IMG/VR virus record: IMGVR_UViG_3300028888_000049
Strand: one strand, 5' to 3'
Length of the DNA: 64,000 bases
Source: a virus
Lineage: Duplodnaviria; Caudoviricetes
A program made the translations under genes and the position numbers. The notes beneath the pieces were generated by a model. It saw nothing but the letters and a program-made list of their open reading frames with translations, had not been told where the DNA came from and made no database searches. Shown here piece after piece: positions 8,721-28,139 of this stretch (its first letter is position 1; every line of letters starts with the position of its first letter).

Positions 8721-8750
8721 CTTTTAATATTTTTTCAATTACTCCTAGGA

Positions 8751-8783
8751 AAGACTTAACTTTAGATAGTTAGGTCTTTTTTA
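8751..8783 (+). terminator. intrinsic terminator directly upstream of site A
   Basis: AAGACTTAAC/GTTAGGTCTT stem followed by Ts. Confidence 0.65.
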
Positions 8784-8798
8784 TTATATTATTTAGGT

Positions 8799-8842
8799 CT
8801 ACTTTGTGTCGTTTATATGAATCTATAATATACCTAAACTAG
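8799..8842 (+). other. putative serine-invertase recombination site A (AA core 8820-8821)
   Basis: CTActttgtgtcgtTTATAtg-AA-tcTATAAtatacctaaacTAG; 8820-8844 is a perfect inverted repeat of 20379-20403. Confidence 0.7.
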
Positions 8843-8862
8843 AGCGTAGGAAATAGACACAA

Positions 8863-10995
8863 ATGCCAACATCACTCTCAAATATCACTGTTAAAGATTC
8901 TGCACATTCTCTTGTAATCAAATCAAACGATATTACTATTGATGGTACTAGTATACTTGGACAAAATAATTTTGTCACTCTTGATACAGCACAAACGATT
9001 TTGGGTAAAAAAACATTTAGTACTGAAATTATTCAAAATAAATCAACAAGTGGATATACAGGTTTTTATTCACAAAATACGGCTATTACAAGAGGAACCA
9101 CTCCTTCTTCAAATTCTGGTATTACTATAGGATTACAAGATTCAACGGGATTAAATTCATCTGGAAGATTAGCTGCATTTCAATTACAGTATAATACAGA
9201 TGGTAATATACAAGCGTCTATGATAGCTGGTGAACCAGTCTCAGGTAGTAGTGATAATGCGAGAATTAGTTTATTTAATACTGCTACGGGTACAGCTTAT
9301 ACATCAGCTCCAACACCTATGGAAGATACAACCACATCAAAACAAATTGATACTGTAGGTGCAAGAAATACTAAATTATATAAAGGAATTACTAACTGTA
9401 TTACATATATCCCGCAAGACATTAAGTTAGAGATAAACTCAAATGGGAAAGCTGTATTAAAGGCAGGGAGTAAGGTTTATGTACCGAATGGGTTTACAGG
9501 AACAACACCAAAATTTGATGTTAATACTATTGCTAGTGATATTACTTATAATTTTCAATCATCACAGAATGGAAAATATTTACTAGCAAACCATAACAAC
9601 GGACAAAATGCTGGCTGGTCTAAAGCTAACCTAGCGGAAAGTGGAACGAGTACAGAATCAAATACTTCATTTTATTATAGAACAGATGATAATAAAGTAT
9701 ATTATCTAAATGATTCTTCAGGCGGTATTTACACACTTCCTTTGGCTATTGTAAATTTAACAAATGGTGTTGCAACTATAGATCAAGTCTTTAACGGCTT
9801 TGGTTATATTGGTTCAACAGCATTTGCACTTCCTGGAGTTAAAGGACTTATACCTAATGGCAGAAATGAAGATGGAAGTTTGAAGAATATTGAGTTTATA
9901 ACAAGTACAGTATATACGAGAAATTTAACACAAACTGGTACATACTATATGGGATTAACAGTATCAGGAATTGCAGTGTCAAATTTAACAAATAGCTCAT
10001 ATAATGAAAATGAAAACATAAATTATTCAGGGACAGTTAAATGGTTTGCTTCTCCATATTGTATTTGTCTTTTATCATCAGGTGTCATTACATCTCTCAC
10101 TCCTAAAACCCCATTCCACGCAGTTGATTATAATGACTTTTCAGACTTGAAAGATATTGTAGATAACACTGTGAAGCTGACAGGTAACCAGACCATTAAT
10201 GGGGCTAAAACATTTACTGCTTCACCCGTTATAAGTAATAACATTACTGATACTTCATTATTTTTTAAAGATACAGGTATTGCTTCAAATTCAACAGTAC
10301 CTACAGCTGACAGATTACGTTCTTTTAGAGTTATGGCGAATGACAATACGATATTAGGAGACGTAAGATTCGTTAGACAGTCATCAGGAAATGTAACATC
10401 ACAACTAACTTGTAGAAAAGTTATAGATGGAACTCAATATAATTCTGCAGTAACAGCAAATGTTTCATCAACAGGTATTATATACGGAACTTGTCCAACG
10501 CCTCCGGCTGTTTCTAATACAACTGATGCTTATATAGCAACAACAGCATGGTGTAATGACCCAATAAAAAGTACTAATGTAGTTCATAGAAATGGTAATG
10601 AAACCATTGGTGGTACAAAGACATTTAATACTACTTATACATCATTCAAAGGAACAGCCATTGATATTACAAATGCAAAAACTACACAAAATGATGTAGG
10701 GATAAACTGGCTAGATAAAAATGGAACAGTTTTAGGACAAAATCATATTAGAACAGACACTACAGGCTCTGTTGCAAATAGTATGTATATCAAAGCTCAT
10801 AATAGCAATAGTTGGGTGAGTATCACTGTCGGTTTTGATACTAATGATAATGTCTATACACATGCTCCGACGCCAGCTGTTTCTAGTAATAATACTAATA
10901 TAGCAACTACGGCTTATGTAAACAATAAGTTTCAAGTTGTATCTGCACTACCAGCTTCTCCTGATAGTAATGTTTTCTACTTTATACCAGCTTAG
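8863..10995 (+). CDS. tail fibre / receptor-binding protein paralogue A
   Basis: Shared N-terminus MPTSLSNITVKD; fibre repeats (GNETIGGTKTF, IATTAYV); C-terminus VVSALPASPDSNVFYFIPA. Confidence 0.85.
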   Translation: MPTSLSNITVKDSAHSLVIKSNDITIDGTSILGQNNFVTLDTAQTILGKKTFSTEIIQNKSTSGYTGFYSQNTAITRGTTPSSNSGITIGLQDSTGLNSSGRLAAFQLQYNTDGNIQASMIAGEPVSGSSDNARISLFNTATGTAYTSAPTPMEDTTTSKQIDTVGARNTKLYKGITNCITYIPQDIKLEINSNGKAVLKAGSKVYVPNGFTGTTPKFDVNTIASDITYNFQSSQNGKYLLANHNNGQNAGWSKANLAESGTSTESNTSFYYRTDDNKVYYLNDSSGGIYTLPLAIVNLTNGVATIDQVFNGFGYIGSTAFALPGVKGLIPNGRNEDGSLKNIEFITSTVYTRNLTQTGTYYMGLTVSGIAVSNLTNSSYNENENINYSGTVKWFASPYCICLLSSGVITSLTPKTPFHAVDYNDFSDLKDIVDNTVKLTGNQTINGAKTFTASPVISNNITDTSLFFKDTGIASNSTVPTADRLRSFRVMANDNTILGDVRFVRQSSGNVTSQLTCRKVIDGTQYNSAVTANVSSTGIIYGTCPTPPAVSNTTDAYIATTAWCNDPIKSTNVVHRNGNETIGGTKTFNTTYTSFKGTAIDITNAKTTQNDVGINWLDKNGTVLGQNHIRTDTTGSVANSMYIKAHNSNSWVSITVGFDTNDNVYTHAPTPAVSSNNTNIATTAYVNNKFQVVSALPASPDSNVFYFIPA

Positions 10996-12395
10996 GCAGG
11001 AATGTAATAAAATACGTTAGAGTCCGGGCTAGCAGGTAAAGCTGAAACTACCTGATGTTTATTATTAACATATGCAGTTGTCGCAGCAGTAGCCTCATTT
11101 GAAGAAGTAGCAGGTGTAGGTAAGTTCACTTTACTATTAAATATTGCGACGCTATTACCATCTGACAGAACTTGTAAAACTAATTGAGAATAAGCTGAAC
11201 TCGTTTTGCCGTTTGCTCTAATCGCAAAGATTCTATTTTCACTTGTATCTACATTTAAATTAATATATCCTAATTGAGTAGAAGAAGCATCATACCACTC
11301 TATAAATCTTTGTGTACTTGTAGAAGTTGGTGTTCCATTAGTATAGGCTTTATTAAATAGTCTTATTTGTGCATATGAATTTGATGTGTTACCATTACCA
11401 AGTATTATTTGATTGTGTGCTGTGACCCAATTACTCATATTAAATTGTGAAAGATCACTGTGTAGTTTTTGTAATTCTAAACCTTTAGCACCATTTGATA
11501 AATAATGTATCCCTAAATAAGCAAGACGAGTGTTATTATTTCCTCTAAAATCATAACCTACATATTGATTTGATGAAGGAGTAGAACCTGGAGTAATACT
11601 ATTATTTTGAGCAATAAAATTAACTGGTCCAGTAATAGCCGCTACATAATTACTTATATCAAAATGTGCTGAAGAGGCTATTTGTGGAGAATTTTGATTT
11701 TTATGAGCTATTAAATCTAAATAAGTATAATATTGTGTACTGTTAGAAGGATCACCGTTTTGAACACATAAATGACAACCTACTGCATCATTAGTATATT
11801 GTCTCATTTGCATAAAAAATGTTCTACTACCGTTTTTATCAGCTTGTATATAATAATTATTTCCCCATGTATCTGCTGTTAAGGTTTTTGTTTTATCTAT
11901 AGTAGTATTAATCTGCTGTATACTTAAATTACTAAGACGTGATTGTACCCAAGCAGTAGTAGCAATTCGTGAGGTACTGTCTGATACTGAAGAAGGAGTT
12001 GGAGCTTCTGCATAAGATGTTCCGTCTGATTTTATACCTACTCGAATAGCAGCATAACCATTTCCATTTTGTTGTCTTGCGTATAAACTTTTTCTATAAG
12101 TACCATCTGTTAAATGTTCGCATTCTAATCCACCTAACCAAATATTATTTTTATCTGTAAATCCAATGGAACTAATAGTTTGTTCAGATGGAGCAGTAGT
12201 CCAATCATCATTCATACCTTTCTTATAAAATACTTCTCTGAACCATTTATGAGCTTTTATATCTTGATCAGTATCTAGTGTGACAAAATTATTTGTAGCA
12301 AGAATAGATGAACCATTTATAGTAATATCATTAGCTTTAACTATAAGTGTGTTAGTACCATCTTTTACTGTAATATTACTTAAACTTGTTGTCAT
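10992..12395 (-). CDS. tail fibre / receptor-binding protein paralogue B
   Basis: Same N- and C-terminal motifs; stop codon overlaps that of A. Confidence 0.85.
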   Translation of the reverse strand: MTTSLSNITVKDGTNTLIVKANDITINGSSILATNNFVTLDTDQDIKAHKWFREVFYKKGMNDDWTTAPSEQTISSIGFTDKNNIWLGGLECEHLTDGTYRKSLYARQQNGNGYAAIRVGIKSDGTSYAEAPTPSSVSDSTSRIATTAWVQSRLSNLSIQQINTTIDKTKTLTADTWGNNYYIQADKNGSRTFFMQMRQYTNDAVGCHLCVQNGDPSNSTQYYTYLDLIAHKNQNSPQIASSAHFDISNYVAAITGPVNFIAQNNSITPGSTPSSNQYVGYDFRGNNNTRLAYLGIHYLSNGAKGLELQKLHSDLSQFNMSNWVTAHNQIILGNGNTSNSYAQIRLFNKAYTNGTPTSTSTQRFIEWYDASSTQLGYINLNVDTSENRIFAIRANGKTSSAYSQLVLQVLSDGNSVAIFNSKVNLPTPATSSNEATAATTAYVNNKHQVVSALPASPDSNVFYYIPA

Positions 12396-12416
12396 TTTTC
12401 GTCTATTCCTTGTACT

Positions 12417-12460
12417 CTAATTCAGATATATTATAGATTCGTATAGAGTGTTAAAAATAG
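12417..12460 (-). other. putative recombination site B (core 12438-12439)
   Basis: Minus strand CTAtttttaacactCTATAcg-AA-tcTATAAtatatctgaatTAG; 22/25 identical to the gene-proximal half of A/C. Confidence 0.65.
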
Positions 12461-12486
12461 ACTTAATTTAACTTAAAGTATTGTTT

Positions 12487-12798
12487 TTAATGAATAATGA
12501 AGCCTGGAGATAGAACTACTATTTTACCTTTTTTATTTTTAGCATATAAAGCGGATTTTGGTTTACCATGATCTATCCAATATTTAACAAGTAAAATATG
12601 AAAATGATTAAAAGGATTATGAGATTTTTCAAAATGAGGACAACTGCAAGTTTTAAGATCTGCAGATACAAAAAAAGAAGAGACTAAAACTGAATTTATT
12701 TTTTCATGTACAAAGTATCCATTTATTTCTTCATCTACGATACTTTCTTCAATAAGATACATATTAATTCCTTTTTCCTTTTTATAACAATAATACAT
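12487..12798 (-). CDS. small SWIM-like Zn-finger protein
   Basis: CSCPHF...HFH; GTTCTA motif at 12804-12809. Confidence 0.55.
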   Translation of the reverse strand: MYYCYKKEKGINMYLIEESIVDEEINGYFVHEKINSVLVSSFFVSADLKTCSCPHFEKSHNPFNHFHILLVKYWIDHGKPKSALYAKNKKGKIVVLSPGFIIH

Positions 12799-12888
12799 TA
12801 TATTAGAACATTAATTTTCATAAAAAATTATAAAGAAAAAGAGTGTATTAACGAAAACACACTCTCTAACAAACATATTAATTAAAAA

Positions 12889-13527
12889 TTACATAAGACC
12901 TATACATAAACCGAATGTAAAGCCATGTAAAATTTCAGCTAAATTTTTAGGCTCATTTATAGTTAATTTTACAAACATAGAATTAGTATATAATGATGGA
13001 AATTTAGCAAAAAGTTTATGACAACTTAAATAAATAGGATACATACATAAAATAAGAATTAACCATAACCAAGAATGGTATAAAATCATAGCAGGTAATA
13101 AACCAACTAATGCACGCATACTACTATAAATCCAGTCATATACACCATAGTATTTATGAATATGATAAGGTAAATGTAACAGATCTTCTACAACCCAATT
13201 TATAAAACGAACGATCTGATTACATAAAGGACGAAACCATAAGCTGTAAGAGTCGCGATTTTGTACTCCACTTTGGCCAGAATCTATGATCTCTCCTATT
13301 GACCTAGACCAGTACTGTACTATGATATACAGAGATGTAGCAGCAATAGAGAAAGCTTTCCAGAATTCGTTATTAATAGTTACACTCATCTGTATATGCA
13401 TTAGTACAAAACCAAGAGCCATAATTCCGATCATTTCTTGAGTAGCTCTAGAAAGTATCTTTTTAAATTTACCTTCTCCAAAAAGACGTCTCCAAAGAGC
13501 CCAAAACATTCCACATAATAAACTCAT
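12889..13527 (-). CDS. integral membrane protein
   Basis: Several hydrophobic segments; RBS GGAG; GTTCTA motif at 13565-13570. Confidence 0.7.
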   Translation of the reverse strand: MSLLCGMFWALWRRLFGEGKFKKILSRATQEMIGIMALGFVLMHIQMSVTINNEFWKAFSIAATSLYIIVQYWSRSIGEIIDSGQSGVQNRDSYSLWFRPLCNQIVRFINWVVEDLLHLPYHIHKYYGVYDWIYSSMRALVGLLPAMILYHSWLWLILILCMYPIYLSCHKLFAKFPSLYTNSMFVKLTINEPKNLAEILHGFTFGLCIGLM

Positions 13528-13727
13528 TATTTTTAACTCCAGTATTAATAATATATATACTTATTAGAACTATTCAAAAGCTTGTTTTAATTAGCATTTT
13601 GTTATATAACTATTAGGTCTCATTTTAAGCTCATACAGTGATGATATGTCATTTTACTATAAGTTATAAAGAAAAGACCCAAAACGTTAATTCTGGGTCA
13701 TTTTAGTAACTATTTTTGTTATATTTA

Positions 13728-14123
13728 TTATGAATCTTTTTTGCTACAGATATGATGTGCTAGTTTTTTAGCAGATTGTTCCAAAGGATAGAGAATTCCA
13801 CCTGTTGTTTTTAAGAATTCGTAGATTTTTTGTTCTACTTGTTCTTCGTTATTTGAGTCTTCTGTTATTTCTTTAGGACTCATTACTTTTTTAATATAAT
13901 TCCATACTTTTTGTGTAACTTCTTCTTGTTGTTCATCTGATAGTTCATTAAAAGAATGTGAATGATAATTTGCTATTTCATTAAGAAAATCTTTTACGCT
14001 TTCATAATCTTTAGCCTTTAATATCATATTACTTTCAATGTAGTTTAACTTTTTAATGATAGTATTTGCGATTCTGCTTAGAGGATTAATTGCTTCCATA
14101 AATGCTTGACGTGTAATAGACAT
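13728..14123 (-). CDS. hypothetical protein
   Basis: 131 aa, coupled to the upstream ORF. Confidence 0.7.
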   Translation of the reverse strand: MSITRQAFMEAINPLSRIANTIIKKLNYIESNMILKAKDYESVKDFLNEIANYHSHSFNELSDEQQEEVTQKVWNYIKKVMSPKEITEDSNNEEQVEQKIYEFLKTTGGILYPLEQSAKKLAHHICSKKDS

Positions 14124-14950
14124 TAGAATTCTCCTTTAAGACTTTTTAGATAATCAATAACTTCATTAAGTTTATCTTTAGCTTCTTGTGAATATACTGT
14201 CAATACCATATCTTCTATTTTCATGATATCAAAGTCTAAATCACTATTTCTATCTTCTTGTCTTTCAACAGCAGGATCTTTACTATTTACTAATATATTT
14301 TCTATTGCTTCAATAGTTCCTTGTTCTAATCCAAAGTTTATTTTTACTCCCCAAAGATATTTATCTACTTCTTCAGCAGTCATGTCTTGAGGAAATCTGT
14401 CAAGCATATTATAAACTTCTTCTTTCTGTCTATCATCTAATGCAACAGTTTGAAAGATAGCATATTCAACTTTATCTTTATTATAAAGTCTATTTTCAGC
14501 TACATTCTCTTCAAAAGCTTGCACTGATTCTGTTAGAGATTCTTTTACAGTTTTATCTTCTTTTTCTTTATTATCATCTGTATTTTCTTCAGACGTAATT
14601 TCAGAATTTTCAGTATCTTTACCTGTATTAGCTTCTTCTACACCATCTTCAAATGCTTTTTTAATAGTATCTACTTTAGACATTTGTGTTGTTAATTGAG
14701 CAAGATGTTTTACTTCTTCTCTTTTAATATCTTCTAATGTATCGTGAAAAAGCTCTACTAATGATTTTGTAGTTACATTTTCTTCTAAAGCTAATATTTG
14801 GTCATACTCATTACAAGCAGAAGTTTCACTAGAAATAGCTCCCATAATAGCTTGCTTATACTGTTCATCATAAGTGATATCTACAGTATTTGTATCTAGT
14901 GGATTTACTTCTGCTTCAGTCAGAGTTTTCTTTTTAGGAATAAATCTCAT
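14123..14950 (-). CDS. protein with N-terminal ferritin-like four-helix motif
   Basis: AISSETSACNEY...LEDIKREEVKHLAQL (E...Y...EExxH pattern). Confidence 0.55.
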   Translation of the reverse strand: MRFIPKKKTLTEAEVNPLDTNTVDITYDEQYKQAIMGAISSETSACNEYDQILALEENVTTKSLVELFHDTLEDIKREEVKHLAQLTTQMSKVDTIKKAFEDGVEEANTGKDTENSEITSEENTDDNKEKEDKTVKESLTESVQAFEENVAENRLYNKDKVEYAIFQTVALDDRQKEEVYNMLDRFPQDMTAEEVDKYLWGVKINFGLEQGTIEAIENILVNSKDPAVERQEDRNSDLDFDIMKIEDMVLTVYSQEAKDKLNEVIDYLKSLKGEF

Positions 14951-14967
14951 AACATTACTTCTTTTTT

Positions 14968-15678
14968 TTATTTTTGGACTGGATTTGCAGCACTCGATTT
15001 GTTTACAAAGTATGTATTATCGTCACCTAATTCTAGAGAAACTGTAGAAACAGTAATATTTTTAGGTAACTTATTCTTATCTACTTGCGATACTTTATAA
15101 GCATTGTTTTTCTGATCATCTAATACTTGATCTACATGAATACCTTCTGAACCTTCACCAATTTCGTTCTTCAAAGTATTTAAAACATCAGAAACGTTAA
15201 TTCGCATGTCCTGCTGGTAATCTTTAGGACCTGCGAAATCACTTGCCTCAGATAGATATGCTAAACAGTCTTTACCTTCTAAAATCTCGTTCATGAATTT
15301 ACCATAAGTACCTTCGCCAAACATGTGATGTAGCATATGTTCTACTTTGTCTTCACCTTCTTCGCAGTGATCATCTTCACAAGGGTTATCAATTTCTTTT
15401 ACTGAAATATTTACTAATTCATTTGTAACATCAGCATCATGATCAACTGGACCTTCAGCTTTATTTTCAAAGTTAGTATCGTTTGACATTTCAGCTGTAT
15501 TTACGAGATTTTGAGCATCTGTAATTTCTTCTTGTGCAAATTCACCCGGAACTACATTAGCCATACCCATATCATCGAATGACTGTACACCATTCTGTTT
15601 AATCATATCAGCAGTACTTTCAATACCTTCTTTTAATACTGATTTAGCTGCTTCTAATAATTCGTTCTTAAGATTCAT
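14968..15678 (-). CDS. acidic protein, probable head/internal protein
   Basis: LLEA, LKEG, ILEG, LSEA motifs. Confidence 0.6.
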   Translation of the reverse strand: MNLKNELLEAAKSVLKEGIESTADMIKQNGVQSFDDMGMANVVPGEFAQEEITDAQNLVNTAEMSNDTNFENKAEGPVDHDADVTNELVNISVKEIDNPCEDDHCEEGEDKVEHMLHHMFGEGTYGKFMNEILEGKDCLAYLSEASDFAGPKDYQQDMRINVSDVLNTLKNEIGEGSEGIHVDQVLDDQKNNAYKVSQVDKNKLPKNITVSTVSLELGDDNTYFVNKSSAANPVQK

Positions 15679-15833
15679 TTATTTTTATCCTTATTAAAAA
15701 CTCGAGTATATTTGTAGGGATTATTATGTTTTTCTTTTAAAGACTTACGCTTTTTATCTTTTTCATATCTTTGCATATATTCAACGAAGCGCTTATATGT
15801 AAATTTAGAAGATATTTCGTTATCGTCTTTCAT
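15675..15833 (-). CDS. small basic protein (52 aa; not in the ORF track)
   Basis: MKDDNEISSKFTYKRFVEYMQRYEK...; stop overlaps the ATG of the 15678 gene; GTTCTA motifs at 15861 and 15878. Confidence 0.45.
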   Translation of the reverse strand: MKDDNEISSKFTYKRFVEYMQRYEKDKKRKSLKEKHNNPYKYTRVFNKDKNK

Positions 15834-15902
15834 AAGTTAAACCTTTCTTTTACTTTTATTTAGAACTTCATCATAAATAGAACTTAATTATAACGCTAAT
15901 TT

Positions 15903-16838
15903 TTATTCTTTTTCATATTGGCATGGATCTGGAAATAATGTATATAGTAATCCATTAAGTTTAGGAAAATTTCGCCAGTTATCCGTTACATCATCAAAAA
16001 CTGATAGCCAACACTCATTAAGATAGTCTTTCGTAAGATCTCTTCCTAATGGAATTTTTACATCTTTTATAAGTCTTTGATTTTCAACAGTTTTTGTAGG
16101 ATATAAATTTCTATAAACTGATCTTTTATGTAGTACTTTTTTTGTATTTTGAAATTCTTTTATTTCTGGTCTGTTAAGAAATTCTAAAAAATCTTTTTTG
16201 TTAATTAATATTGGCCAGTGCGATTCATAGTTAAACTGGTTTTTACAATTCATTTGAGTAAGAAGTTCTTCTGCATAAGAAAACGCATATTGCCATCTAG
16301 ATTTCTTTTCTGTTTTACTGTATCTTTTTATTTCATCTAATAGTGTACCTAAGTATACGTTAGTATTTTCTTCCCAATTAGTTATTTGTTTTATAGCAAA
16401 GAAATCATCATTCATAAGAATAAAATTATCAGAAATATCTGGACATGTACAAGCAGTAGTATAATTAACCATACTGTTTTTCCATTTATTTCCTGTTTGT
16501 TCTGTATGTATATATTCTACATTTTGTACCCAAGAAGGCTTATATCCTATAATCCATATTTTACGATATTTACAGAATTTAGAAACAGAACGTAATGACA
16601 TTCTTAAATCAGGATTGATCTCTCCTTCTTTTACAATATAGACTAAATCATATAATGTATCTGTATCAATAGGATCTTGCTTAATAATATTACAATCTTC
16701 TATTTGCGATTTAAAAAGTACTTTTACTCTATCCGTATGTATTTTTTTTAATTTTTCTCTTTCTTTTGCTAATCTACGTAAATAAGGAGCTAATGTACAT
16801 CCTAAACTACTCATTATATTCTCCAGTAATATATACAC
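15903..16838 (-). CDS. Stealth-family (sugar-phosphotransferase)-like protein
   Basis: DLVY...DLRMSLRSV.KF...IWIIG..PSW...ISDNFILMNDDFF, a Stealth CR1/CR2-like pattern. Confidence 0.7.
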   Translation of the reverse strand: MYILLENIMSSLGCTLAPYLRRLAKEREKLKKIHTDRVKVLFKSQIEDCNIIKQDPIDTDTLYDLVYIVKEGEINPDLRMSLRSVSKFCKYRKIWIIGYKPSWVQNVEYIHTEQTGNKWKNSMVNYTTACTCPDISDNFILMNDDFFAIKQITNWEENTNVYLGTLLDEIKRYSKTEKKSRWQYAFSYAEELLTQMNCKNQFNYESHWPILINKKDFLEFLNRPEIKEFQNTKKVLHKRSVYRNLYPTKTVENQRLIKDVKIPLGRDLTKDYLNECWLSVFDDVTDNWRNFPKLNGLLYTLFPDPCQYEKE

Positions 16839-16886
16839 TATTTATAATGTATAGAACTGAAAAATACAAACAATAAGCGAATAAAT

Positions 16887-17159: not shown

Positions 17160-17166
17160 TTATACA

Positions 17167-20100: not shown

Positions 20101-20346
20101 AGTATCAGTTAAATTAAATAAAGCAGTTCCCCCACTACCTAAGTTAGCTGTTCTTTGAATGGCAGAACTAAAGGTTTTAACACCAGATATACTTTCATTA
20201 CCAGTTTTGTGTACTACATCTGCATCGTTAGCTTTATTATTTATCTGTGTTTGTATACTAGTACCATCTATTGTGATGTCGTTTGATTTAACTATGAGTG
20301 TATGACTTGAATCTTTTACTGTGATATTTGATAAAGAGGTAGGCAT
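17167..20346 (-). CDS. tail fibre / receptor-binding protein paralogue C (1059 aa)
   Basis: Shared N- and C-termini; multiple TPATSDNSTKIATTA and VKLTGNQTIAG repeats. Confidence 0.88.
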   Translation of the reverse strand: MPTSLSNITVKDSSHTLIVKSNDITIDGTSIQTQINNKANDADVVHKTGNESISGVKTFSSAIQRTANLGSGGTALFNLTDTNGKGSVNQSSYYVNGALYNRLNTVNATSNKEGYIEVQNRDNGAFTASINGNGTNLSLTRVVSATTDTEVPTKGWVNNPDTSTNVIHRTGNEEKSGNLTLTSGAIYKLKGYSDFSELTKSSAHVILEATDLTNNSVTSLYNYRSYNSQEGKSQTGYWFRAHKYGENTSYADLRNMIADDGQNFALIYTGGGNLSNTYNYNLVYSTSSTSDTLLATMGWVNNPATSTNVVHRSGDETINGNKTINDALYFNGVFRGKNISFQTISLNDCVSTGSSETLYYYCTSNGASANITDKPIADQDTFLLETSMIRNFSSTDHIIFQKYYGAKESCIYFRSCKNGTWTSWKKLFLGDTSEYLTTLTPATSDNSTKIATTAWVKAQGYSSGGQATWGSVTGTLSNQTDLQNALNAKAADSDVVKLTGNQTIAGNKTFTSTPTIKMTQPNLYMQYSGISKGTAPTSTIDGWFGTVYDKNGTAQTNKMAQIYHDYNSNGVSTLNLAVFEPTSGSTNDAKLTIGYDQNKNVFTYAPTPATSDNSTKIATTAFVKAQGYITSSGSITGSAAKLTTKRTIDGVEFDGSANITHYGTCDTAAATQEKVVACTGFKLETGAVIFVKFTAEANGADNPTLNVNSTGAKAIQYRGSAINKGYLRINRTYVFVYDGTYYQLIGDLDSNTTDRLQIANNIKAATAITAGRAIVGTSAGYKNIGSGITFDISYPILVAGSAISASGTGTNNFRAISGRSVRDITGNSSWTGTQYATVYLVLSALNGVTATIDSTLVTTTVPSSADNKFYIPIGYTYSTYQCYFCPQDKIYAYTNGKFQEYGSASGDTSDCVKLTGNQTIAGTKTFSNVPIVLKDGDMRVRYQSSVYTQGTAPSSNCYGGSRITDKNNVEMGSVYTGMYTDGSVSSRLFVKSPVAGTNSGATLGISCNASGSFYTEAPTPAVSDNSTKIATTAYCNSKHQVVSALPASPNANVFYYIPA

Positions 20347-20380
20347 TATATAAGTCCTTGTTTTGTCTATATTTTTATCT

Positions 20381-20424
20381 CTAGTTTAGGTATATTATAG
20401 ATTGATATAAAAGGAAAGAAGTAG
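20381..20424 (-). other. putative recombination site C (core 20402-20403)
   Basis: Minus strand CTActtctttccttTTATAtc-AA-tcTATAAtatacctaaacTAG; upstream half identical to F, gene-proximal half identical to A. Confidence 0.75.
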
Positions 20425-20515
20425 TAATATAATTTAAAAGAAAATAAATAAAAATCCACTGAAATCCAAAAATATATAACAAACACATACTTTAGCATAT
20501 AAAACTTTTTTAAGC

Positions 20516-20544
20516 TTTACAAATGTTAAAGATAACTATATAAT
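20516..20544 (+). promoter_or_regulatory. sigma70-like promoter of the invertase
   Basis: TTTACA-N17-TATAAT; similar TTTACA elements at 34013, 37726, 44855. Confidence 0.65.
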
Positions 20545-20600
20545 ATATATCGTAAAAACAAAAATATTAACTTTAATTTTTAGAAAAAGGAAATAATACA

Positions 20601-21242
20601 ATGACAGTATATGCATATCTACGTGTTTCAACACAACAACAAGATGAACAAAATCAAAGACTTGGTATTGATAAAAAAGCAGAACAACTAAATCTAACAA
20701 TAGATAAATACATTATAGATAAGAAATCAGGAGCCATTGATCCTAGTGAAAGAAACTTAGGTAAACTACTTAAAAAACTAAAACAAGGAGACATACTACT
20801 TATCAGTGAAATATCAAGACTATCACGTAAACTATTCTCTCTTTTCAGCATCATAAAAGTACTACTAGAGAAACAAGTCACTATCTATTCAGTAAAGGAT
20901 GGATATACACTAGATGCATCCATTCAGTCAAAGATACTTGCGTTCGCATTTGGTATTTCAGCCGAATTGGAACGCCAATTACTTTCTCAGAGGACTAAGG
21001 AAGCATTGGCTCATAAAAGAGAGCAGGGTGTTATATTAGGTCGTCCTAAAGGTTCGAAGTCTTCATATCACAAACTTGATTCACATAAGACAAGATTATT
21101 GAATGATTACGAAAAAGGAGCAACTATAACATCACTTGCAAAAAGGTATAAAGTCTCTCATAAAACTGTAAAGAAGTATGTAGATCGTTATAGAGGCATT
21201 TATCATCTTAAAGTTGAAGAGCAAGTTACTGAAGAGATTTAA
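20601..21242 (+). CDS. serine recombinase / DNA invertase, Mpi (multiple promoter invertase)-like family
   Basis: Catalytic YLRVST, SEISRLSR, IQSKILAFAFGISAELERQLLSQRTKEALA, LGRPKG and a C-terminal HTH. Confidence 0.9.
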   Translation: MTVYAYLRVSTQQQDEQNQRLGIDKKAEQLNLTIDKYIIDKKSGAIDPSERNLGKLLKKLKQGDILLISEISRLSRKLFSLFSIIKVLLEKQVTIYSVKDGYTLDASIQSKILAFAFGISAELERQLLSQRTKEALAHKREQGVILGRPKGSKSSYHKLDSHKTRLLNDYEKGATITSLAKRYKVSHKTVKKYVDRYRGIYHLKVEEQVTEEI

Positions 21243-22185
21243 GTAGAAGTTCTTTATCTTCATCCCAACAGTAGTGGAAGTTTTTACAAGTATATTTAAA
21301 GCTTCCACTATTTTTATTTTTATTACACGCTCTATAAACAGATGATTTTTTTACTCCTATTTTTTCTGCTAATTTGGCGCCGTTTGTGTAAATTTTATCT
21401 TCTTCTAAACAATAGACTTTTGAAAACTTTTTATTTATAGGAATAGTAAATGTATCTTTATCTTTTAAATAACACCAATGATAACCTTCTGCTGTATGTT
21501 TTATTCCTGCACAAACTTTTTGAATGGCTGTTCTACAATTAAATTCTTTTTCAGCTTCTGCTATAGTATTGAATATTCTATTTAATTCTACACAATATAC
21601 AGGAGTTTTATTAGATTTATCTTCTCTTGGTGTATATGTATCTATATCCTTTTCATAACACCAATGCATATTAGCAGAAGTAGTATATTTCTTTTCGCAA
21701 CAAGCAATTATTCCAGTATCTGTAAAATTATATTCTGGATATTTTTCACAAAATTCTTTATATGTAAGAGTTTCGTTTAATTCAAAACAATGATATTTAC
21801 TAACAGTACGTCTTTCATTAAACTCTTTAAATTTTGTACTATTTTTAAGACCTTCACTTATATGTTTTTTAACTTCTTCTGTATATGCTTTTGATTCTTC
21901 TCCGCCCGAAGTTGAATTATAACCTTCATTCATAGAATTATAATGTTTTATCCAATAAATTTCTTTTTGACTTAATTCTTCTTGTGAATTGCCTTCATCT
22001 ATTTGTTCAATAATAAAGTTATCTTTACCATATTTGCGAATAGCATTATGAAACTTATTGTGATAGATATTAGCATTTGCTTTATTAATATGTTGTTTGA
22101 AACGTCTTTTTAACTTTTGACGTGTTTGTCCTATATAGACTTTATTATTTACTAAGTTTGTAATTTTGTAGATGATACCGTACAT
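21226..22185 (-). CDS. GIY-YIG homing endonuclease with NUMOD-like repeats
   Basis: IIYKITNLVNNKVYIGQT...GYN; repeated VYCxE...IxxxC...HWC units. Confidence 0.85.
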   Translation of the reverse strand: MYGIIYKITNLVNNKVYIGQTRQKLKRRFKQHINKANANIYHNKFHNAIRKYGKDNFIIEQIDEGNSQEELSQKEIYWIKHYNSMNEGYNSTSGGEESKAYTEEVKKHISEGLKNSTKFKEFNERRTVSKYHCFELNETLTYKEFCEKYPEYNFTDTGIIACCEKKYTTSANMHWCYEKDIDTYTPREDKSNKTPVYCVELNRIFNTIAEAEKEFNCRTAIQKVCAGIKHTAEGYHWCYLKDKDTFTIPINKKFSKVYCLEEDKIYTNGAKLAEKIGVKKSSVYRACNKNKNSGSFKYTCKNFHYCWDEDKELLLKSLQ

Positions 22186-22187
22186 TT

Positions 22188-22502
22188 TTAATATTTTCCG
22201 TAGTGAATATAGTCAAATAAATCTTTTTCAATCCCTTTAAGTTTATTTTCATCTTTTACAATATCGGAATGTACATTTTCTACAATAGTTGTAATTTTTG
22301 AGACGAATCCAGAGCCGATTGCAATAAGTGATCCATATATTGCCATAATTGAGAGAATTATAGATAAAATATCTGAAATTAATCCAATTTTATCATTTAA
22401 ATTCATTTTTTGAGTATTCTTCATTAAGATTCCTCCTATTTTTGTTAGTTCTAATAATATAAATAGAACCGAAATATTTTTTATTTTTATAAGTAAATAC
22501 AA
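22188..22502 (-). CDS. small membrane protein (start probably at internal MKNTQK)
   Basis: One TM segment; RBS GGAGG before the internal Met. Confidence 0.55.
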   Translation of the reverse strand: MYLLIKIKNISVLFILLELTKIGGILMKNTQKMNLNDKIGLISDILSIILSIMAIYGSLIAIGSGFVSKITTIVENVHSDIVKDENKLKGIEKDLFDYIHYGKY

Positions 22503-22530
22503 AGATAAATTTAAAAAATAAGCAGTTCTA
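22448..22530 (+). promoter_or_regulatory. two GTTCTA motifs pointing toward site D (candidate late expression site)
   Basis: GTTCTA at 22448-22453 and 22525-22530. Confidence 0.5.
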
Positions 22531-22653
22531 AAAAGTAATATATGACAAGTTTTCTACTTTATATTGTTATTAAAAATTCTTGAACTTAAAAATACGGATA
22601 TGCAGTATATATTAAGGATGGTTAATAACGGTATATTGTAAAAAAGGATAATA

Positions 22654-22697
22654 ATTAACTAGGTAAATTAAACCAACATTTAACATTATAAATCAAG
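22654..22697 (+). other. putative recombination site D (AA core 22675-22676)
   Basis: TTAAAcc-AA-caTTTAA; 22675-22707 is a perfect 33-bp inverted repeat of 25716-25748 that begins exactly at the AA. Confidence 0.7.
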
Positions 22698-22708
22698 GAC
22701 TTAGATAG

Positions 22709-23926
22709 ATGCCAACTTCTCTTTCAAATATTAAGGTTACAGATGGACAAAATAATCTTGTAATTACAGGAAACGATATAACAATAAATGGTACATCTAT
22801 TTTAGGACAAAACAATTATGTTACATTAGATACTACTCAGACTATTACAGGAGTAAAGACTTTTAGTAATACTATAAAAAGTACAAGACAAGGAGATGGT
22901 ATTTTTTTAACTAGAAAAAGTAGTACAGATAGTACAGGAGATGCATTTGTAGATTTAAAATTTTTTGATACATTAGGTAATAGAAAAGGTGGAGTTAGAA
23001 ATATACTTGAAAATGGAAATACTACTTGTTTATATGTAACAAACGAAGCTGGAAATGCTATTAAAAATACATTAAACCTAGTATATAATGAATCATCTGA
23101 TAGAGTATATACAAGTATAATTAATCCAGAAATTAATTCTCTTAATTTAAGAACAAACCAATATAATTGGGGTACAAATCCAACTACTGGTACAGATTTA
23201 CTATCACATAATTTTAGAGATAATACCGATACTCCTGTTGTTTCTAATAGACCATATTTATCATCAAATGGTGATCGATATTATTTTATATCTGTTATTA
23301 ATAAAGAAAAAACAAAATATACTGAATTAGCTGTTGGTTGGGATGCATCTGGAAATGCAAATACTGTTGCTCCAATTCCAACGTCTACTACTTCTACATC
23401 TTCTAGACAAATAGCTACTACTGGATGGGTAAATACAGTTGGTAATAATGTTGTGCATTTAACTGGTAATGAAACTATAACAGGAGCTAAATGGGTTAAT
23501 AATAGTTATATAATAAGAGGTAATGGTGAAATTCAATTTACAGATACAACCGGATATACACCATCCAATCCACCTTCTGAAAGTAAAGCTTTTGGTACAT
23601 TACGCTGGGGAGTAGGCTGTACAGCTGGTAATACTAGTTGGTTAAGTGGTGGTTCTGAATTATTAAAAATACAACCAATTATATCATCACAAGGAAAAGT
23701 AAATGTTGCTTTCGTAGTGTTTGATAGTTCTGGTAATAGTAAGGAATTATTAGACTTATATTCTACTGCGGATGGAAGTGATGCTGCAGCTATAACTATT
23801 ACACCTTCTAATGCAGATAATTCTAGAAAAATAGCTACGACTGCGTATGTAAATAATAAGTTACAAGTCGTATCAGCTTTACCAGCATCTCCTGATAGTA
23901 ATACATTCTATTTTATTCCTGCATAA
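22709..23926 (+). CDS. tail fibre / receptor-binding protein paralogue D
   Basis: Shared N- and C-terminal motifs. Confidence 0.85.
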   Translation: MPTSLSNIKVTDGQNNLVITGNDITINGTSILGQNNYVTLDTTQTITGVKTFSNTIKSTRQGDGIFLTRKSSTDSTGDAFVDLKFFDTLGNRKGGVRNILENGNTTCLYVTNEAGNAIKNTLNLVYNESSDRVYTSIINPEINSLNLRTNQYNWGTNPTTGTDLLSHNFRDNTDTPVVSNRPYLSSNGDRYYFISVINKEKTKYTELAVGWDASGNANTVAPIPTSTTSTSSRQIATTGWVNTVGNNVVHLTGNETITGAKWVNNSYIIRGNGEIQFTDTTGYTPSNPPSESKAFGTLRWGVGCTAGNTSWLSGGSELLKIQPIISSQGKVNVAFVVFDSSGNSKELLDLYSTADGSDAAAITITPSNADNSRKIATTAYVNNKLQVVSALPASPDSNTFYFIPA

Positions 23927-23983
23927 TAATTATTAAAAAGTTCTATACATATATATCATTAAAAAATAAATGAGAATGTATAG

Positions 23984-24460
23984 ATGCCTATATGGAGAAG
24001 AATATTACAAGGAACTAAAAAAGTATCTCCTGCTGTACAAAGAAATGTATCTAATATAGCAAGAATATCTAACTTAGATTTAAGATATGATGAGGGTGTA
24101 AAAACTTTAACTTTTTATGCTAATGTAAAATCATCTACGTTTAATACATTCTATTCTGTTATTATTACATTCAAAGGTGTAGAAAGAACAGATGGTTTAA
24201 CAGAAGATGAAATTAACAAAGGATTTCAACCAAAACCTACACTATCAAAAAATGAAGTAATGATCCGCTGTTCTTGTAATAATTACAGATTTCGTTTTGA
24301 TCAAGCTAACAGAAAAAATAAAGTAGGTACTGGTGCTAGATTTCCAATATATAGAAGAAAAACAAATAGAAAACCATATAATCCACATATGATAGCAGGT
24401 ACATGTAAACATGTTATAGAATTATTAGATTATCTTCAAAAAAATGGTTTTATACACTAA
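23984..24460 (+). CDS. SWIM-type Zn-finger protein
   Basis: CSC...CKH; GTTCTA motif at 23940-23945. Confidence 0.65.
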   Translation: MPIWRRILQGTKKVSPAVQRNVSNIARISNLDLRYDEGVKTLTFYANVKSSTFNTFYSVIITFKGVERTDGLTEDEINKGFQPKPTLSKNEVMIRCSCNNYRFRFDQANRKNKVGTGARFPIYRRKTNRKPYNPHMIAGTCKHVIELLDYLQKNGFIH

Positions 24461-25713
24461 GCCGGAATATAATAAAATACATTTGCATCTGGACTGGCTG
24501 GTAATGCAGAAACTACTTGATGCTTATTATTACAATAAGCCGTAGTCGCGATTTTCGTACTATTGTCTGATACTGCTGGAGTAACATCTAAACTTATATA
24601 ATCATTATTAAGATATATTTTGCGATTATTTCCTGTTGTTCCATCTTGTGGTCTTAATTGGATACCTGTTGCATTGTTTGTTCCTTGTATTACTAAACAC
24701 CCTCCTACATTACCATCTCCAACTTTTACATCATCACCTATATTGTTCAAAATATTGTTTGCAAATTGAACAGCACTACTAAATGCTTTAGTACCACTAA
24801 TAGTCTGATCACCATTCAATGTTACATAGTTTGATAAACTTTGATGAGAAGTAAGATATCCTTGTGCTTTGACAAATGCAGTTGTTGCAATCTGTGTAGA
24901 GTTATCAGAAGTCGCGGGAGTAGGGGCGTAAGTATAAACCGTTCCATCTCTTTTTGCTATAACTCTGATTGCTGCGTCATATGCTACATCCGAAGAATTT
25001 AAATTCGTCGCAATCATAGATGCTTGTATTTCATTACTTGTTGTTTGTGTTACATAAAAATTACCAATTTGTGCATTGTTTTTATCTCTAATGAGCCAAC
25101 TAGTATATTGAGTAGATGACGGAGCTGTTCCTCTTGTAATAGTTGAACTTTTTCTTATTGCATCCATACTATGTATTGTGTTTTCACTAAAGGTTTTAGT
25201 ACCTGTAATAGTTTCATTTCCTGAAGTATGTACTATTCCATTTCCGGCTGTTTTAACCCATGCAGTAGTAGCGATCTTAGTACTATTATCAGTTACAGCA
25301 GGTGTAATAGCTGTAGTATAACCATTATCGTTAGAATCACAACCAATATTTAGCATTCCTTTATTATTACCGTTTTTATCATAAACTAAAAATCTAATTT
25401 CCCTTTCAGTAGAAGTATCTCTTAAATATATATCACTCAGTACTAAAGCATTTTTATCAAGAAACTTACAGTGTGTATAATTTGCTGTAGATGGATTTAC
25501 AGTTCTATCCATACCAGTATTTTTAAACTGAATAAAAACAGTATCAGTACCTCTAGTAATTGATTTTACACCTGTAATCTCTTGGTTTGTATCTAACGTT
25601 ACAAAGTTATTAGTAGCTAATATACTACTTCCATTAATTGTAATATCATTAGCCTTAACAACTAATGTATTTTGTCCATCTTTTACCGTTATATTACTTA
25701 ATGAAGTAGTCAT
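24457..25713 (-). CDS. tail fibre / receptor-binding protein paralogue E
   Basis: Shared N- and C-terminal motifs; N-terminus nearly identical to B. Confidence 0.85.
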   Translation of the reverse strand: MTTSLSNITVKDGQNTLVVKANDITINGSSILATNNFVTLDTNQEITGVKSITRGTDTVFIQFKNTGMDRTVNPSTANYTHCKFLDKNALVLSDIYLRDTSTEREIRFLVYDKNGNNKGMLNIGCDSNDNGYTTAITPAVTDNSTKIATTAWVKTAGNGIVHTSGNETITGTKTFSENTIHSMDAIRKSSTITRGTAPSSTQYTSWLIRDKNNAQIGNFYVTQTTSNEIQASMIATNLNSSDVAYDAAIRVIAKRDGTVYTYAPTPATSDNSTQIATTAFVKAQGYLTSHQSLSNYVTLNGDQTISGTKAFSSAVQFANNILNNIGDDVKVGDGNVGGCLVIQGTNNATGIQLRPQDGTTGNNRKIYLNNDYISLDVTPAVSDNSTKIATTAYCNNKHQVVSALPASPDANVFYYIPA

Positions 25714-25725
25714 ATTATCTAAGTC

Positions 25726-25769
25726 CTTGATTTATAATGTTAAATGTTACTTTAATTGACTTATTTTAG
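25726..25769 (-). other. putative recombination site E (core 25747-25748)
   Basis: Minus strand CTAaaataagtcaaTTAAAgt-AA-caTTTAAcattataaatcAAG. Confidence 0.7.
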
Positions 25770-25783
25770 AAATTATATATAAT
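25756..25783 (+). promoter_or_regulatory. sigma70-like promoter between the E and F cores, pointing at fibre F
   Basis: TTGACT-N16-TATAAT. Confidence 0.5.
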
Positions 25784-25786
25784 GAT

Positions 25787-25830
25787 CTACTTCTTTCCTT
25801 TTATATCAACATTAAAAATATTATAGGACT
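25787..25830 (+). other. putative recombination site F (AA core 25808-25809)
   Basis: 25787-25809 CTACTTCTTTCCTTTTATATCAA is a perfect inverted repeat of 20402-20424 and ends exactly at the AA; the gene-proximal half resembles D/E. Confidence 0.7.
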
Positions 25831-25841
25831 TAGACAAAAAT

Positions 25842-28103
25842 ATGCCTACATCTGCTTCAAACATAATTGTGAAAAATGGTACAAAAAATACAGTAGTATC
25901 TGCTGATGATATTAATATTAACGGTACTTCTGTAATTACTACTTTAAGTTCTAAACAAGACGTTTTAACTCCTGGTACCGGAATTGATATTACCAATAAC
26001 GTTATCTCCTCTACATTAAACTCTGCACAATGGGGTAATATTACCGGTACCATCTCTAATCAAACAGACTTACAAACAGCCTTAGATAATAAACAAAATG
26101 TAGCAACTGCTGTAAATTATGACAACATCACTAACTGTATTACATATATTCCACAAGATATTAAACTTGAGCTGAATAATGGTACTCTGACATTAAAAGC
26201 TGGTTCTAGAGTTTATGTACCAAATGGGACTAATACTTTTGATGAAGTTGTGATTAGCGAAGATATTTCACTTAGTAATAAAACTTCTACTAGAAAGATA
26301 CAATCATTAATTTTAATGAGGATTAATAAATCGAGTTTGGAGATTTGGAATGTAAATGATAGTTATTCTGGTACGACTCAACCAACGGCTACATATCAAT
26401 GCTGGTATAATACAACCAATAATACAATAAAGTCATCAGTGAATGGTGGTAGTACATACGGTGTTAATTTGTCTTTACCACTTTGTATTGTTTCTGTTGA
26501 TTCAACGGGTATGACATCTATAGACCAAGTCTTTAATGGCTTTGGATATATTGGCTCAACAGTCTTTGCTTTACCTGGTATACAATATTTATACTCTAAT
26601 GGTAGAAATGAAAATGGAACATTAAAGAATATTACTAATACAACATCCTCTGTTCTGACTTTTACTTGGAATCCGGGTTTATGGGGTAATAATTTCCCCG
26701 TTGTATTAGATTTGTATGGTGTTGAGTTTTTGGGTAATGAGAATACTTTTATTGGGGGCGAAAGACCAGAAAATCCCTCAGCTTATACACGTTGGTATAA
26801 TAAAGAAGAAAATCAATGGTACATTTATGTTACATACTGGGATAAAGCATATTTGTGCATTTATTCTTATGTTGACCTCTCTAACGGCAAAGTTGTTGGG
26901 TTTAGAACAAAAACAGCCTTTCATGCAGTAGATTATAATGACTTCTCTGACTTGAAAGATGATGTAGAAGCTAACACTAATACTTTAGAGTATAAACAAG
27001 ATGAAGCCACTGCTGTCAACTATGACAACATCACTAACTGTATAACAGAAATTCCACAGAATATACAACTTGAGTTGAATAATGGAACGCTGACACTAAA
27101 AGCAGGAAGTAAAGTATATGTGCCAAATGGTGCAGGTGTGTTTACGCTTGTTACAACTACATCAGATGTTTCAAGAAGCGAATTTGGTACAACAACTGGA
27201 AATAATCTATATTTAGAGGGAGTATACGGAGGTGGTACTATTTCGGCTATTTCTTGGTCTCTACAAAGCAATACATCAAGTGGCACAACATCACCAGCAT
27301 CAGGTATATTCTATAATACAAGCACAAATTATATAAATAGGTATGTTGAAGGAGAAGCAAAAGACCAAAGAAGTTTTCCGCTTGCGCTAATAACACTTGA
27401 TAATGGAACACCGACAAGTATAGACCAAGTCTTCAATGGCTTTGGTTATATTGGCTCAACAGTCTTTGTTCTTCCTGGTGTTAAAGGATTAATTCCAAAT
27501 GGTAGAAATGCGGATGGTACACTGAAGAGTATTGAGTTAAGTTTTTCAAAAGTTGTAACACAGACAAACAATGTTACATATTCCGGAGATATAGCTATAA
27601 CTTCGGATTATTTTGATTTGGCACAAGGTAATATGTATAATGAAAAAGATAATAGAAATTATCTTTCTGATGGTGTAACACCATTTAATAGGTGTATTGC
27701 GGGAAAATTTGTTAAGGGAACAAACGGTGTCATCACTTCTCTTACTCCTAAAACAGTCTTTCGTGCTCTTGACTACAACGACAGCTCTACAATATCAGGT
27801 TGGTCTATGCCATCAAGTAGGTATATAGACTTAACCCTTGGCGCTAGTGGTGCAAATTATACAGCTCCGGCAAATGGGTGGATATTTTTTGCAAAAGCCT
27901 CCGATTCATCAGGTCAGTTTAATGCTATTACTAATAGTACAGGCGGTGGTTTAAGAAGCGACTGTACTGCATCTAGTTCAGGACAGTGGGCGACTGTTAA
28001 CTGTCCTGTAAAAAGAGGAGATATATTTAGTATTGAGTATACAACATCAGGAGAAACAAAAAGATTCCGTTTCATTTATACTGAGGGAGAAAGTTCTAAT
28101 TAA
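25842..28103 (+). CDS. tail fibre paralogue F (duplicated ITNCIT-module, different C-terminus)
   Basis: N-terminus MPTSASNIIVKNG; two copies of the ITNCIT.IPQ.I.LEL...IDQVFNGFGYIGST module; C-terminus SMPSSRYIDLTLGASG..YTAPANGW. Confidence 0.85.
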   Translation: MPTSASNIIVKNGTKNTVVSADDININGTSVITTLSSKQDVLTPGTGIDITNNVISSTLNSAQWGNITGTISNQTDLQTALDNKQNVATAVNYDNITNCITYIPQDIKLELNNGTLTLKAGSRVYVPNGTNTFDEVVISEDISLSNKTSTRKIQSLILMRINKSSLEIWNVNDSYSGTTQPTATYQCWYNTTNNTIKSSVNGGSTYGVNLSLPLCIVSVDSTGMTSIDQVFNGFGYIGSTVFALPGIQYLYSNGRNENGTLKNITNTTSSVLTFTWNPGLWGNNFPVVLDLYGVEFLGNENTFIGGERPENPSAYTRWYNKEENQWYIYVTYWDKAYLCIYSYVDLSNGKVVGFRTKTAFHAVDYNDFSDLKDDVEANTNTLEYKQDEATAVNYDNITNCITEIPQNIQLELNNGTLTLKAGSKVYVPNGAGVFTLVTTTSDVSRSEFGTTTGNNLYLEGVYGGGTISAISWSLQSNTSSGTTSPASGIFYNTSTNYINRYVEGEAKDQRSFPLALITLDNGTPTSIDQVFNGFGYIGSTVFVLPGVKGLIPNGRNADGTLKSIELSFSKVVTQTNNVTYSGDIAITSDYFDLAQGNMYNEKDNRNYLSDGVTPFNRCIAGKFVKGTNGVITSLTPKTVFRALDYNDSSTISGWSMPSSRYIDLTLGASGANYTAPANGWIFFAKASDSSGQFNAITNSTGGGLRSDCTASSSGQWATVNCPVKRGDIFSIEYTTSGETKRFRFIYTEGESSN

Positions 28104-28139
28104 TATCTTTAAATTTTAATAACTTAGGATATTAATTAT

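Follow-up and report, generated by a model that had tools for sequence, protein, structure and literature searches.

Phage tail-fibre switches on record exchange fibre tips through gene fusion and are found mostly in temperate phages. In Salmonella, the Hin/hix H-segment is an invertible segment with an outward-facing promoter and the gene for its serine invertase; it has only two 26-bp sites with an AA core, and turns one operon with a repressor ON or OFF. Mpi of Bacteroides fragilis flips small promoter segments across the chromosome in trans. Multi-site fibre shufflons of phages include Min of the plasmid-prophage p15B and bifidophage Rin, which, like Gin of Mu and Cin of P1, fuse variable C-termini in frame to one constant N-terminus, and Min, Gin and Cin are serine enzymes (PMC6109161). 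In the Vpma/Xer1 system of Mycoplasma agalactiae, surface proteins are encoded by six whole paralogous genes, conserved in leader and N-terminus, which have recombination sites in their 5' UTRs and an adjacent recombinase, and inversion sets a silent gene behind the promoter; the enzyme is a tyrosine recombinase acting on identical 21-bp sites, with one unique promoter, in a bacterial chromosome (PMC2268961).

The best explanation for the locus described here is that a T4-like jumbo myophage from the sheep gut (contig of at least 263 kb) carries a multi-site DNA-inversion locus, and we give a probability of about 0.68 to the whole model of an inversion locus with leader sites and flank-dependent expression of six fibre genes, lettered A to F. 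Like Min, Gin, Cin and Rin, it pairs a phage-borne invertase with neighbouring tail-fibre genes and has several crossover sites and multiple inversions, and as for the first three the enzyme is a serine recombinase, relatives of which run such fusion cassettes. Unlike all four, its sites lie in leaders and whole genes move, and it covers 17 kb with unrelated cargo, with the recombinase inside the flipped DNA of a jumbo myophage genome. Six whole genes, leader sites and a neighbouring recombinase are shared with Vpma/Xer1 (and Vsp/Mbr and Vsa/HvsR), but this is a phage locus with degenerate dyad sites, possibly more than one active flank, and a serine rather than a tyrosine (Xer1/Mbr) recombinase. 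As in Hin/hix, the flipped segment between C and D holds a serine recombinase gene and an outward candidate promoter and the core is AA, whereas there are six sites rather than two; as with Mpi, inversions are non-coding and occur at several sites, whereas Mpi works in trans on small, chromosome-wide promoter segments. The first-pass annotation knew of no phage system on record with this architecture. We found the combination in no paper, but multi-site fibre shufflons (PMC6109161) and the whole-gene, leader-site design of Vpma (PMC2268961) were already known, and it is only the combination of a multi-site phage fibre switch with whole-gene promoter capture that appears to be undescribed.

The window, meaning the whole 64,000-nucleotide stretch that was analysed, includes a tail sheath gene at 5484. 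Sequencing runs with a low share of words did not count towards the habitat. There is no close cultured phage, the best matches having 40-43% identity for the recombinase and ~30% for the sheath, and viral and metagenome scans using the recombinase, the sheath, the fibre N-terminus and the D-left motif as queries did not find a close relative. A Ca. Enterousia bin with a related recombinase is a mere lead on the host. The fibre-like genes are:

8863..10995, + strand: gene A, 710 aa
10992..12395, - strand: gene B, 467 aa
17167..20346, - strand: gene C, 1059 aa
22709..23926, + strand: gene D, 405 aa
24457..25713, - strand: gene E, 418 aa
25842..28103, + strand: gene F, 753 aa, C-terminus unlike the others

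All six of the paralogous fibre genes that had been proposed were found as ORFs at their positions and strands, and the ~35-aa N-terminus said to be common to them was confirmed. A C-terminal motif and internal repeats are common to A-E, F excepted, while A and F have in common a ~260-aa repeat of 44% identity. Tail-fibre likeness in sequence or fold was found in PHROG tail/tail-fibre matches for C, E and the fibre family, in BppL_N repeats, and in BFVD long-tail-fibre matches, which have low TM-scores and E-values of 1e-5 to 1e-3; in the PDB, neither sequence nor fold gave a significant match. Matches in the Atlas are weak fibre-like leads. A 3+3 model that paired the C-terminus common to the fibres with the N-terminal part of the 7719 protein, as a putative common tip protein, scored 0.04.

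Ahead of each fibre gene lies a crossover site:

8798..8843, + strand: site A, 22-bp arm, AA core at 8820-8821, 22-bp arm
12416..12461, - strand: site B, core at 12439-12438
20380..20425, - strand: site C, core at 20403-20402
22653..22698, + strand: site D, core at 22675-22676
25725..25770, - strand: site E, core at 25748-25747
25786..25831, + strand: site F, core at 25808-25809

The AA core of the dyad site predicted ahead of every fibre ATG lies 34-57 nt upstream in all six cases, and such a site 30-60 nt upstream was found for 6/6 fibre genes and 0/81 other ORFs. Its consensus is T-A-W-A-NN-AA-NN-T-W-W-A, in many copies flanked by CTA...WAG. By itself the short pattern is weak, with 13 matches vs 5.6 expected; with the outer CTA, correctly attributed to most sites, it has five matches (A, B, C, E, F) vs 0.34 expected (0/100 shuffles). 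Three sites face + and three face -, as had been read (first A of the core at 8820+, 12439-, 20403-, 22675+, 25748- and 25808+), and the six cores together cover 16,988 bp between the outermost, in line with the ~17 kb first estimated. The arms are rather divergent, with 9-14/22 dyad matches. The right half of site E equals that of D over 33 bp, the left arm of F matches C-left over 21 bp, and sites E and F stand back to back, 60 bp apart. In-frame stops between core and ATG, noted earlier in leaders A, B and D, were confirmed there and extend to all six leaders, in which the core-to-ATG phases are 1,2,0,1,2,1, so that all three phases occur. Because of these stops and the mixed phase, the locus is not a coding-fusion system, and no in-frame joining of a constant N-terminus to variable C-terminal cassettes was found; it consists of whole paralogous genes with a recombination site in the 5' UTR, and of an invertase beside fibre genes with several oppositely oriented sites.

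The recombinase and the other genes carried between the sites are as follows, with related phages denoted by L numbers:

20601..21242, + strand: Mpi-like small serine recombinase of 213 aa, located within the invertible C-D segment
20516..20544, + strand: sigma70-like promoter match (11/12) 5' of the recombinase, a consensus match only
21226..22185, - strand: GIY-YIG homing endonuclease, a passenger missing from L012, L013 and L033
22188..22424, - strand: small ORF of the C-D segment, 78 aa as called in L002, kept in all close relatives
12487..16838, - strand: cargo genes between sites B and C (SWIM-finger protein, Stealth-domain gene, unknowns conserved in related phages)
23984..24460, + strand: conserved phage gene with its own AGTTCTA motif, which moves together with D

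An inversion of the Stealth gene in L070 lacks an AA site and was excluded as a site event. The recombinase gene starts 198 bp from site C (the earlier estimate was ~200 bp) and encodes a catalytic serine domain (Pfam Resolvase, PF00239, 104.9 bits) and a C-terminal HTH (weak matches), with the YLRVS catalytic motif intact and Y6, R8, S10, R73 and R76 invariant in the alignment. The assignment to the Mpi family did not hold, since the score against the NCBIfam Mpi model (NF009949) was 224.6 bits vs a cut-off of 272; the enzyme is thus Mpi-like but no member of that family. The recombinases of the phage relatives score 205-224 bits on the same model, which is the best family match here, at full length (E 1e-66).

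The AA-NN-TTTAA site recurs next to recombinases 55-58% identical to this one, where it belongs to fusion cassettes of the ordinary Min/Cin type. At 10 of the 14 loci scanned, collar-domain cassettes hold AA-CN-TTYAA sites whose left arms are A-rich mirrors, and the fusion-type site was present in none of ten loci that lack the recombinase. Sites of this type have been re-paired among L034, L035 and L039, and in L013 both site types lie beside one recombinase; in L008 and L029, which have related recombinases, the fusion-type site was not found.

It had been proposed that inversion at the AA core would place an intact fibre gene behind another flank and that fibre order would be permuted in related phages. 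Both proposals are borne out by relatives in which halves have been re-paired at the sites, for C and D within 2-3 bp. In L033 (~94% identical), a single 3.7-kb contig holds both reciprocal C x D junctions; either crossover narrows down to CAA at positions -1..+1, and parent-specific bases segregate 23:0 and 0:22 around the core. The C x D swap recurs in L071, L005 and L012, the last with a recombinase of 80% identity. C-left is joined to F in L003/L004, A-left to B-right in L021/L022 and D-left to an A-type half in L003, and the recombinase-side C-left is followed by C, D/E or F right halves depending on the phage; L003/L004 and L021/L022, possibly one data set assembled twice, were counted once. 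The junctions narrow to CAA or AA in L033, L071, L005, L012 and L003, which places the crossover inside the 2-bp core of the dyad site on comparative rather than biochemical grounds. Assembly artefacts, or homologous recombination between similar leaders with the recombinase as a bystander, would fit the A x B and C x F junctions, whose halves share at least 20 bp, and the D/E ambiguity with its 33-bp repeat. However, at five loci from different studies the halves share no more than 2-3 bases where C x D or D x A crossed over, C and D have only 3 bp in common at the crossover, which is too little for either process, and in other phages, too, this site is found with the recombinase clade; this explanation is largely refuted and highly improbable. 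That this recombinase carries out the observed re-pairing is very likely.

Phages that are ~94-95% identical show three or more differences at the same core, while their recombinase is intact, with 98% conservation among them. Two junctions in L003 and one in L021, all from the same sample, are incompatible with a single inversion isomer of the window layout, a hint of mixed isomers or of segment content that differs. At sites A, B, C and F, the probable source run has single contigs that read straight through, and no other join is listed; the depth is ~16, and contigs drop rare forms. Contigs of four runs were compared over 8500-28400, in a joint table made noisy by a low likeness threshold, and none of the joints listed falls at a site. 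Contig breaks at D and E in that run were rejected as evidence of switching, the 33-bp identical repeat accounting for them, and one piece ending exactly at 20402 was left out of the junction count, as its continuation could not be read. All six assemblies of the L013 lineage (L013-L018) share a single orientation, and the E-F arrangement is unchanged in L073/L074, so that switching may be rare. The permutations could even be rare historical events fixed in lineages, with the system slow or dormant and no working phase switch, to which the divergent site arms would also be suited. Against this stand the intact, conserved recombinase, the at least three states of one core among near-identical phages and the three junctions of one sample, and we regard dormancy as quite unlikely.

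In the inversion model, strand exchange by the Mpi-like recombinase would take place at the AA core, within each fibre gene's untranslated leader. The ribosome site and ATG would ride in the right half, so that inversion would alter the upstream part only. The core unit would be a Hin-like flip of a 2.3-kb segment, with recombinase and promoter, between fibres C and D, which further site-gene pairs would extend; inversions alone would allow 320 possible arrangements, with any of the six genes reaching D-left. The flanks would be unequal in transcription potential, and D-left would be the main ON position by virtue of two copies of a phage promoter motif. Two flank features bear on this:

22447..22531, + strand: promoter-like AGTTCTA motif in two copies directed towards site D, at -227 and -150 relative to its core
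8746..8783, + strand: T-tailed hairpin resembling a terminator, immediately before site A, kept in L019-L028

Of 106 AGTTCTA copies, 63 have an ORF on the same strand starting no more than 150 nt further on, against a 10% background, and single-base variants of it, as well as the AATCTA of the A, B and C leaders, are at background. The D-left copies lie 184 and 261 nt before the ATG, the median among matches within 150 nt being 44 nt. They are conserved in L003, L012, L013 and L033, surviving as a pair amid diverged sequence in L013, and the pair is retained even where a relative's recombinase has only 73% identity. AGTTCTA is probably a late promoter that sets expression, and D-left is likely to be the main ON flank and a candidate main expression site. 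Judged from their motifs, A-left, after the terminator, is a probable OFF flank, and C-left and E-left, which lack AGTTCTA, are likely to be OFF as well. B-left may be ON by read-through from the 12487 gene, and because both B-left and F-left may be active besides D-left, there may be more than one expression site.

An alternative accepts recombination at the sites but has most or all fibre genes expressed anywhere, from their own leader promoters or by read-through, with inversion shuffling or importing cassettes between co-infecting phages as in an integron. It would be consistent with the TATAAT-like hexamer in the A, B and C right halves, with the sigma70-like match in the E-F spacer that faces F, and with L019, L020 and L070, which hold fibre genes foreign to the window behind the same sites. 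However, genes show no enrichment of the AATCTA variant ahead of them, L073/L074 have a changed -10 in the E-F match, a terminator stands ahead of A and conserved promoter motifs stand ahead of D only, and the fibre gene bodies vary through ordinary repeat recombination too. We therefore consider position-independent expression unlikely, if less so than dormancy.

The purpose of the proposed inversions would be a varied fibre set and hence varied host recognition, and it is somewhat probable that host range changes through fibre switching. More tentatively, a coding-fusion invertase may have been converted to a Vpma-like expression-site system in which six complete fibre genes are switched by late-promoter capture in living populations, with combinatorial fibre sets from two or three ON flanks and up to 320 genome isomers. 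Relatives keep the likely steps, from fusion cassettes, through a two-gene promoter flip with fusion sites (L013), to the six-gene array. The locus supplies a serine invertase that tolerates sites which are degenerate and far apart, and it accounts for the fragmentation of these phage genomes in assemblies. Here a large phage moves entire fibre genes of differing structure, using the chemistry of the fusion switches, and if expression follows the flank, this would be antigenic-variation-style switching in a virus and would give rumen and gut phages a means to track phase-varying hosts.

On re-examination, the six fibre-like genes of the window (A to F), their common N-terminus and the AA-core dyad element ahead of each start (sites A to F) were as the first-pass annotation had described. 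A short form of the site pattern is mildly over-represented (13 matches, 5.6 expected), and an extended form has 5 matches against 0.34 expected, falling on five of the six sites and at no other position. A site lies 30-60 nt upstream of the start in 6/6 fibre genes and in 0/81 other ORFs. In-frame stops between core and ATG, previously noted for A, B and D, are present in all six leaders, and the core-to-ATG spacings represent all three phases; coding fusion at these sites is therefore excluded. With moderate confidence, the A-F products resemble tail fibres: they contain BppL_N repeats, PHROG tail-fibre matches extend throughout the family, and at fold level there is a weak likeness to long tail fibres. 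The protein encoded at 7719-8192 has an N-terminal conserved tip-type segment, M-x-(I/L)-Y-K-G (36 relatives), and similar genes lie directly 3' of fibres in two compared contigs (L013 and L070); the protein is a possible distal subunit common to A-E, via their C-termini.

Contigs encoding close homologues of the window's recombinase and flanking genes (L-numbered) were compared by classifying the upstream flank (left) and gene-bearing (right) half of each site, split at its core. C-left, on the recombinase side, is joined to C in the window and to an F-type gene in L003/L004. In L005, L033, L071 and L012 it is joined to a right half of D/E type, after which L071 and L012 have a D-type gene and its neighbour. 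D-left precedes D in the window; in L033 it stands before C, in L012 before a C-like gene and in L003 before an A-like gene. A-left precedes A in the window, is joined to the leader and start of B in L021/L022, and stands before a seventh type of fibre in L019, L020, L023 and L027. In L033 (about 94% identical) both reciprocal C x D inversion products occur on a single contig; a base-by-base comparison places each crossover within the trinucleotide CAA, to either side of which the parent-specific bases sort cleanly. Since so little sequence is common at the crossover, chimeric assembly and homologous exchange are ruled out for these junctions. The permuted pairings and this crossover bear out the proposal that inversion joins intact fibre genes to other upstream flanks. 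The A x B and C x F pairings are consistent with inversion, and are mapped less precisely because their halves are alike. Segment content also varies between lineages: at 1119 L012 has a third site and fibre gene in direct orientation after its homologue of window gene 23984, a position taken in the window by the convergent gene E.

Switching may be infrequent. Single contigs span each of sites A, B, C and F in the run that is probably the source, and contig breaks at D/E are explained by a 33-bp repeat. The L013 lineage has a single orientation across six assemblies, and two relatives share the window's E-F arrangement.

The window's recombinase belongs to the resolvase/invertase group, and its catalytic motif is intact. 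Mpi, the family to which it had earlier been assigned, gives the best NCBIfam match, but the score is under the family cut-off. Of the more distant members of its clade, at 55-58% identity, most adjoin sites that share the core and right arm of the window's sites and have an A-rich mirror left arm. These sites fall within collar-domain cassettes, in register for coding fusion, and such fusion-type sites are re-paired among L034, L035 and L039. L013, whose recombinase is 73% identical, carries a leader-type switch of two genes around the enzyme; beside the same recombinase it also has fusion-type sites, in a collar tip gene and in a promoterless cassette (139 and 730). Together, these sequence relationships suggest that the window recombinase performs the inversions. 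In a human-gut phage of ~200 kb (L034/L035/L039/L044, about 14790-19760; recombinase 57% identical), a Min-like collar-domain shufflon with five sites lies about 4-9 kb from the enzyme, and its nested inversions carry along metallophosphoesterase, VanY-like and HNH genes. L067, which pairs a 58%-identical recombinase with a fusion-type site, belongs to the bin of a Candidatus Enterousia (alphaproteobacterial) MAG; this is a weak host lead, since the near-identical L066 is binned as Clostridia.

A contig of 263,463 bp also encodes the recombinase and matches the window exactly over 11.7 kb; by this match, the window is a portion of a jumbo phage genome. The best-matching sequencing run is a sheep gut metagenome, which may be the source of the phage; no close cultured relative was found. 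Two helicases lie downstream of the fibre locus, and other features are as follows.

Features in and around the fibre locus (window coordinates)
5484-7445: contractile sheath gene, ~30% identity to large T4-like myophages
15903-16838: phage-borne Stealth-domain (CR2) gene
21226-22185: GIY-YIG homing endonuclease 1, optional inside the invertible C-D segment
28140-28793: GIY-YIG homing endonuclease 2

In L070 a Stealth-domain (CR2) gene (2579-3490) is flipped relative to its neighbours without AA sites. Window 49767-50628, a long AT-rich non-coding stretch at a local minimum of cumulative GC skew, has five copies of ATCCACT(A/G)AA and is a probable replication origin with iteron-like boxes; one further copy lies at 20454, upstream of the recombinase.

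Inversion would alter the sequence ahead of each fibre gene. AGTTCTA is a strongly oriented upstream motif common to this large-phage group (window 530-43283 and nine related loci), with 63/106 copies within 150 nt upstream of a same-strand ORF against a 10% background, at which its single-base variants stay. Since in the window it stands upstream of the sheath gene and its neighbours and becomes rare past 44 kb, we read it as a candidate phage late promoter element, different from T4's TATAAATA. Two of the copies, at -227 and -150, point towards site D; both are retained in 4/4 relatives with D-left, including L013 despite its diverged surrounding DNA. A-left is preceded by a strong T-tailed hairpin, C-left and E-left are without AGTTCTA, B-left ends a same-strand gene run with AGTTCTA motifs and no clear terminator, and F-left has a sigma70-like match with a non-conserved -10. 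These differences in motif, hairpin and possible read-through point to promoter capture as the best model: D-left would be the main ON position, with perhaps one or two further ON flanks. By enumeration, 320 isomers are reachable through inversion alone, and every gene can reach D-left.

The simplest history would be that a fusion-type invertase site was taken over by gene leaders, beginning with a two-state C/D flip that was later expanded. The E-F pair, with an E-left similar to D-left and an F-left that copies C-left, looks like a duplicated C-D unit without the recombinase.

Min (p15B) and Rin (bifidophages) are multi-site phage fibre shufflons acting by coding fusion (PMC6109161). The Vpma locus of Mycoplasma agalactiae comprises six complete genes whose recombination sites lie in the 5' untranslated region; the recombinase encoded next to them is a tyrosine enzyme, and there is a single promoter (PMC2268961). 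The window locus would work like Vpma, with whole genes and leader sites, but with Min-type chemistry, and departs from each family in a defining feature. The literature search, of incomplete coverage, turned up no phage in which whole genes are switched through leader sites, and the first-pass annotation had likewise known of none. The locus is real, a known kind of switch in an apparently undescribed layout, and by analogy with Gin, Cin and Min it would serve the phage as a host-range switch.
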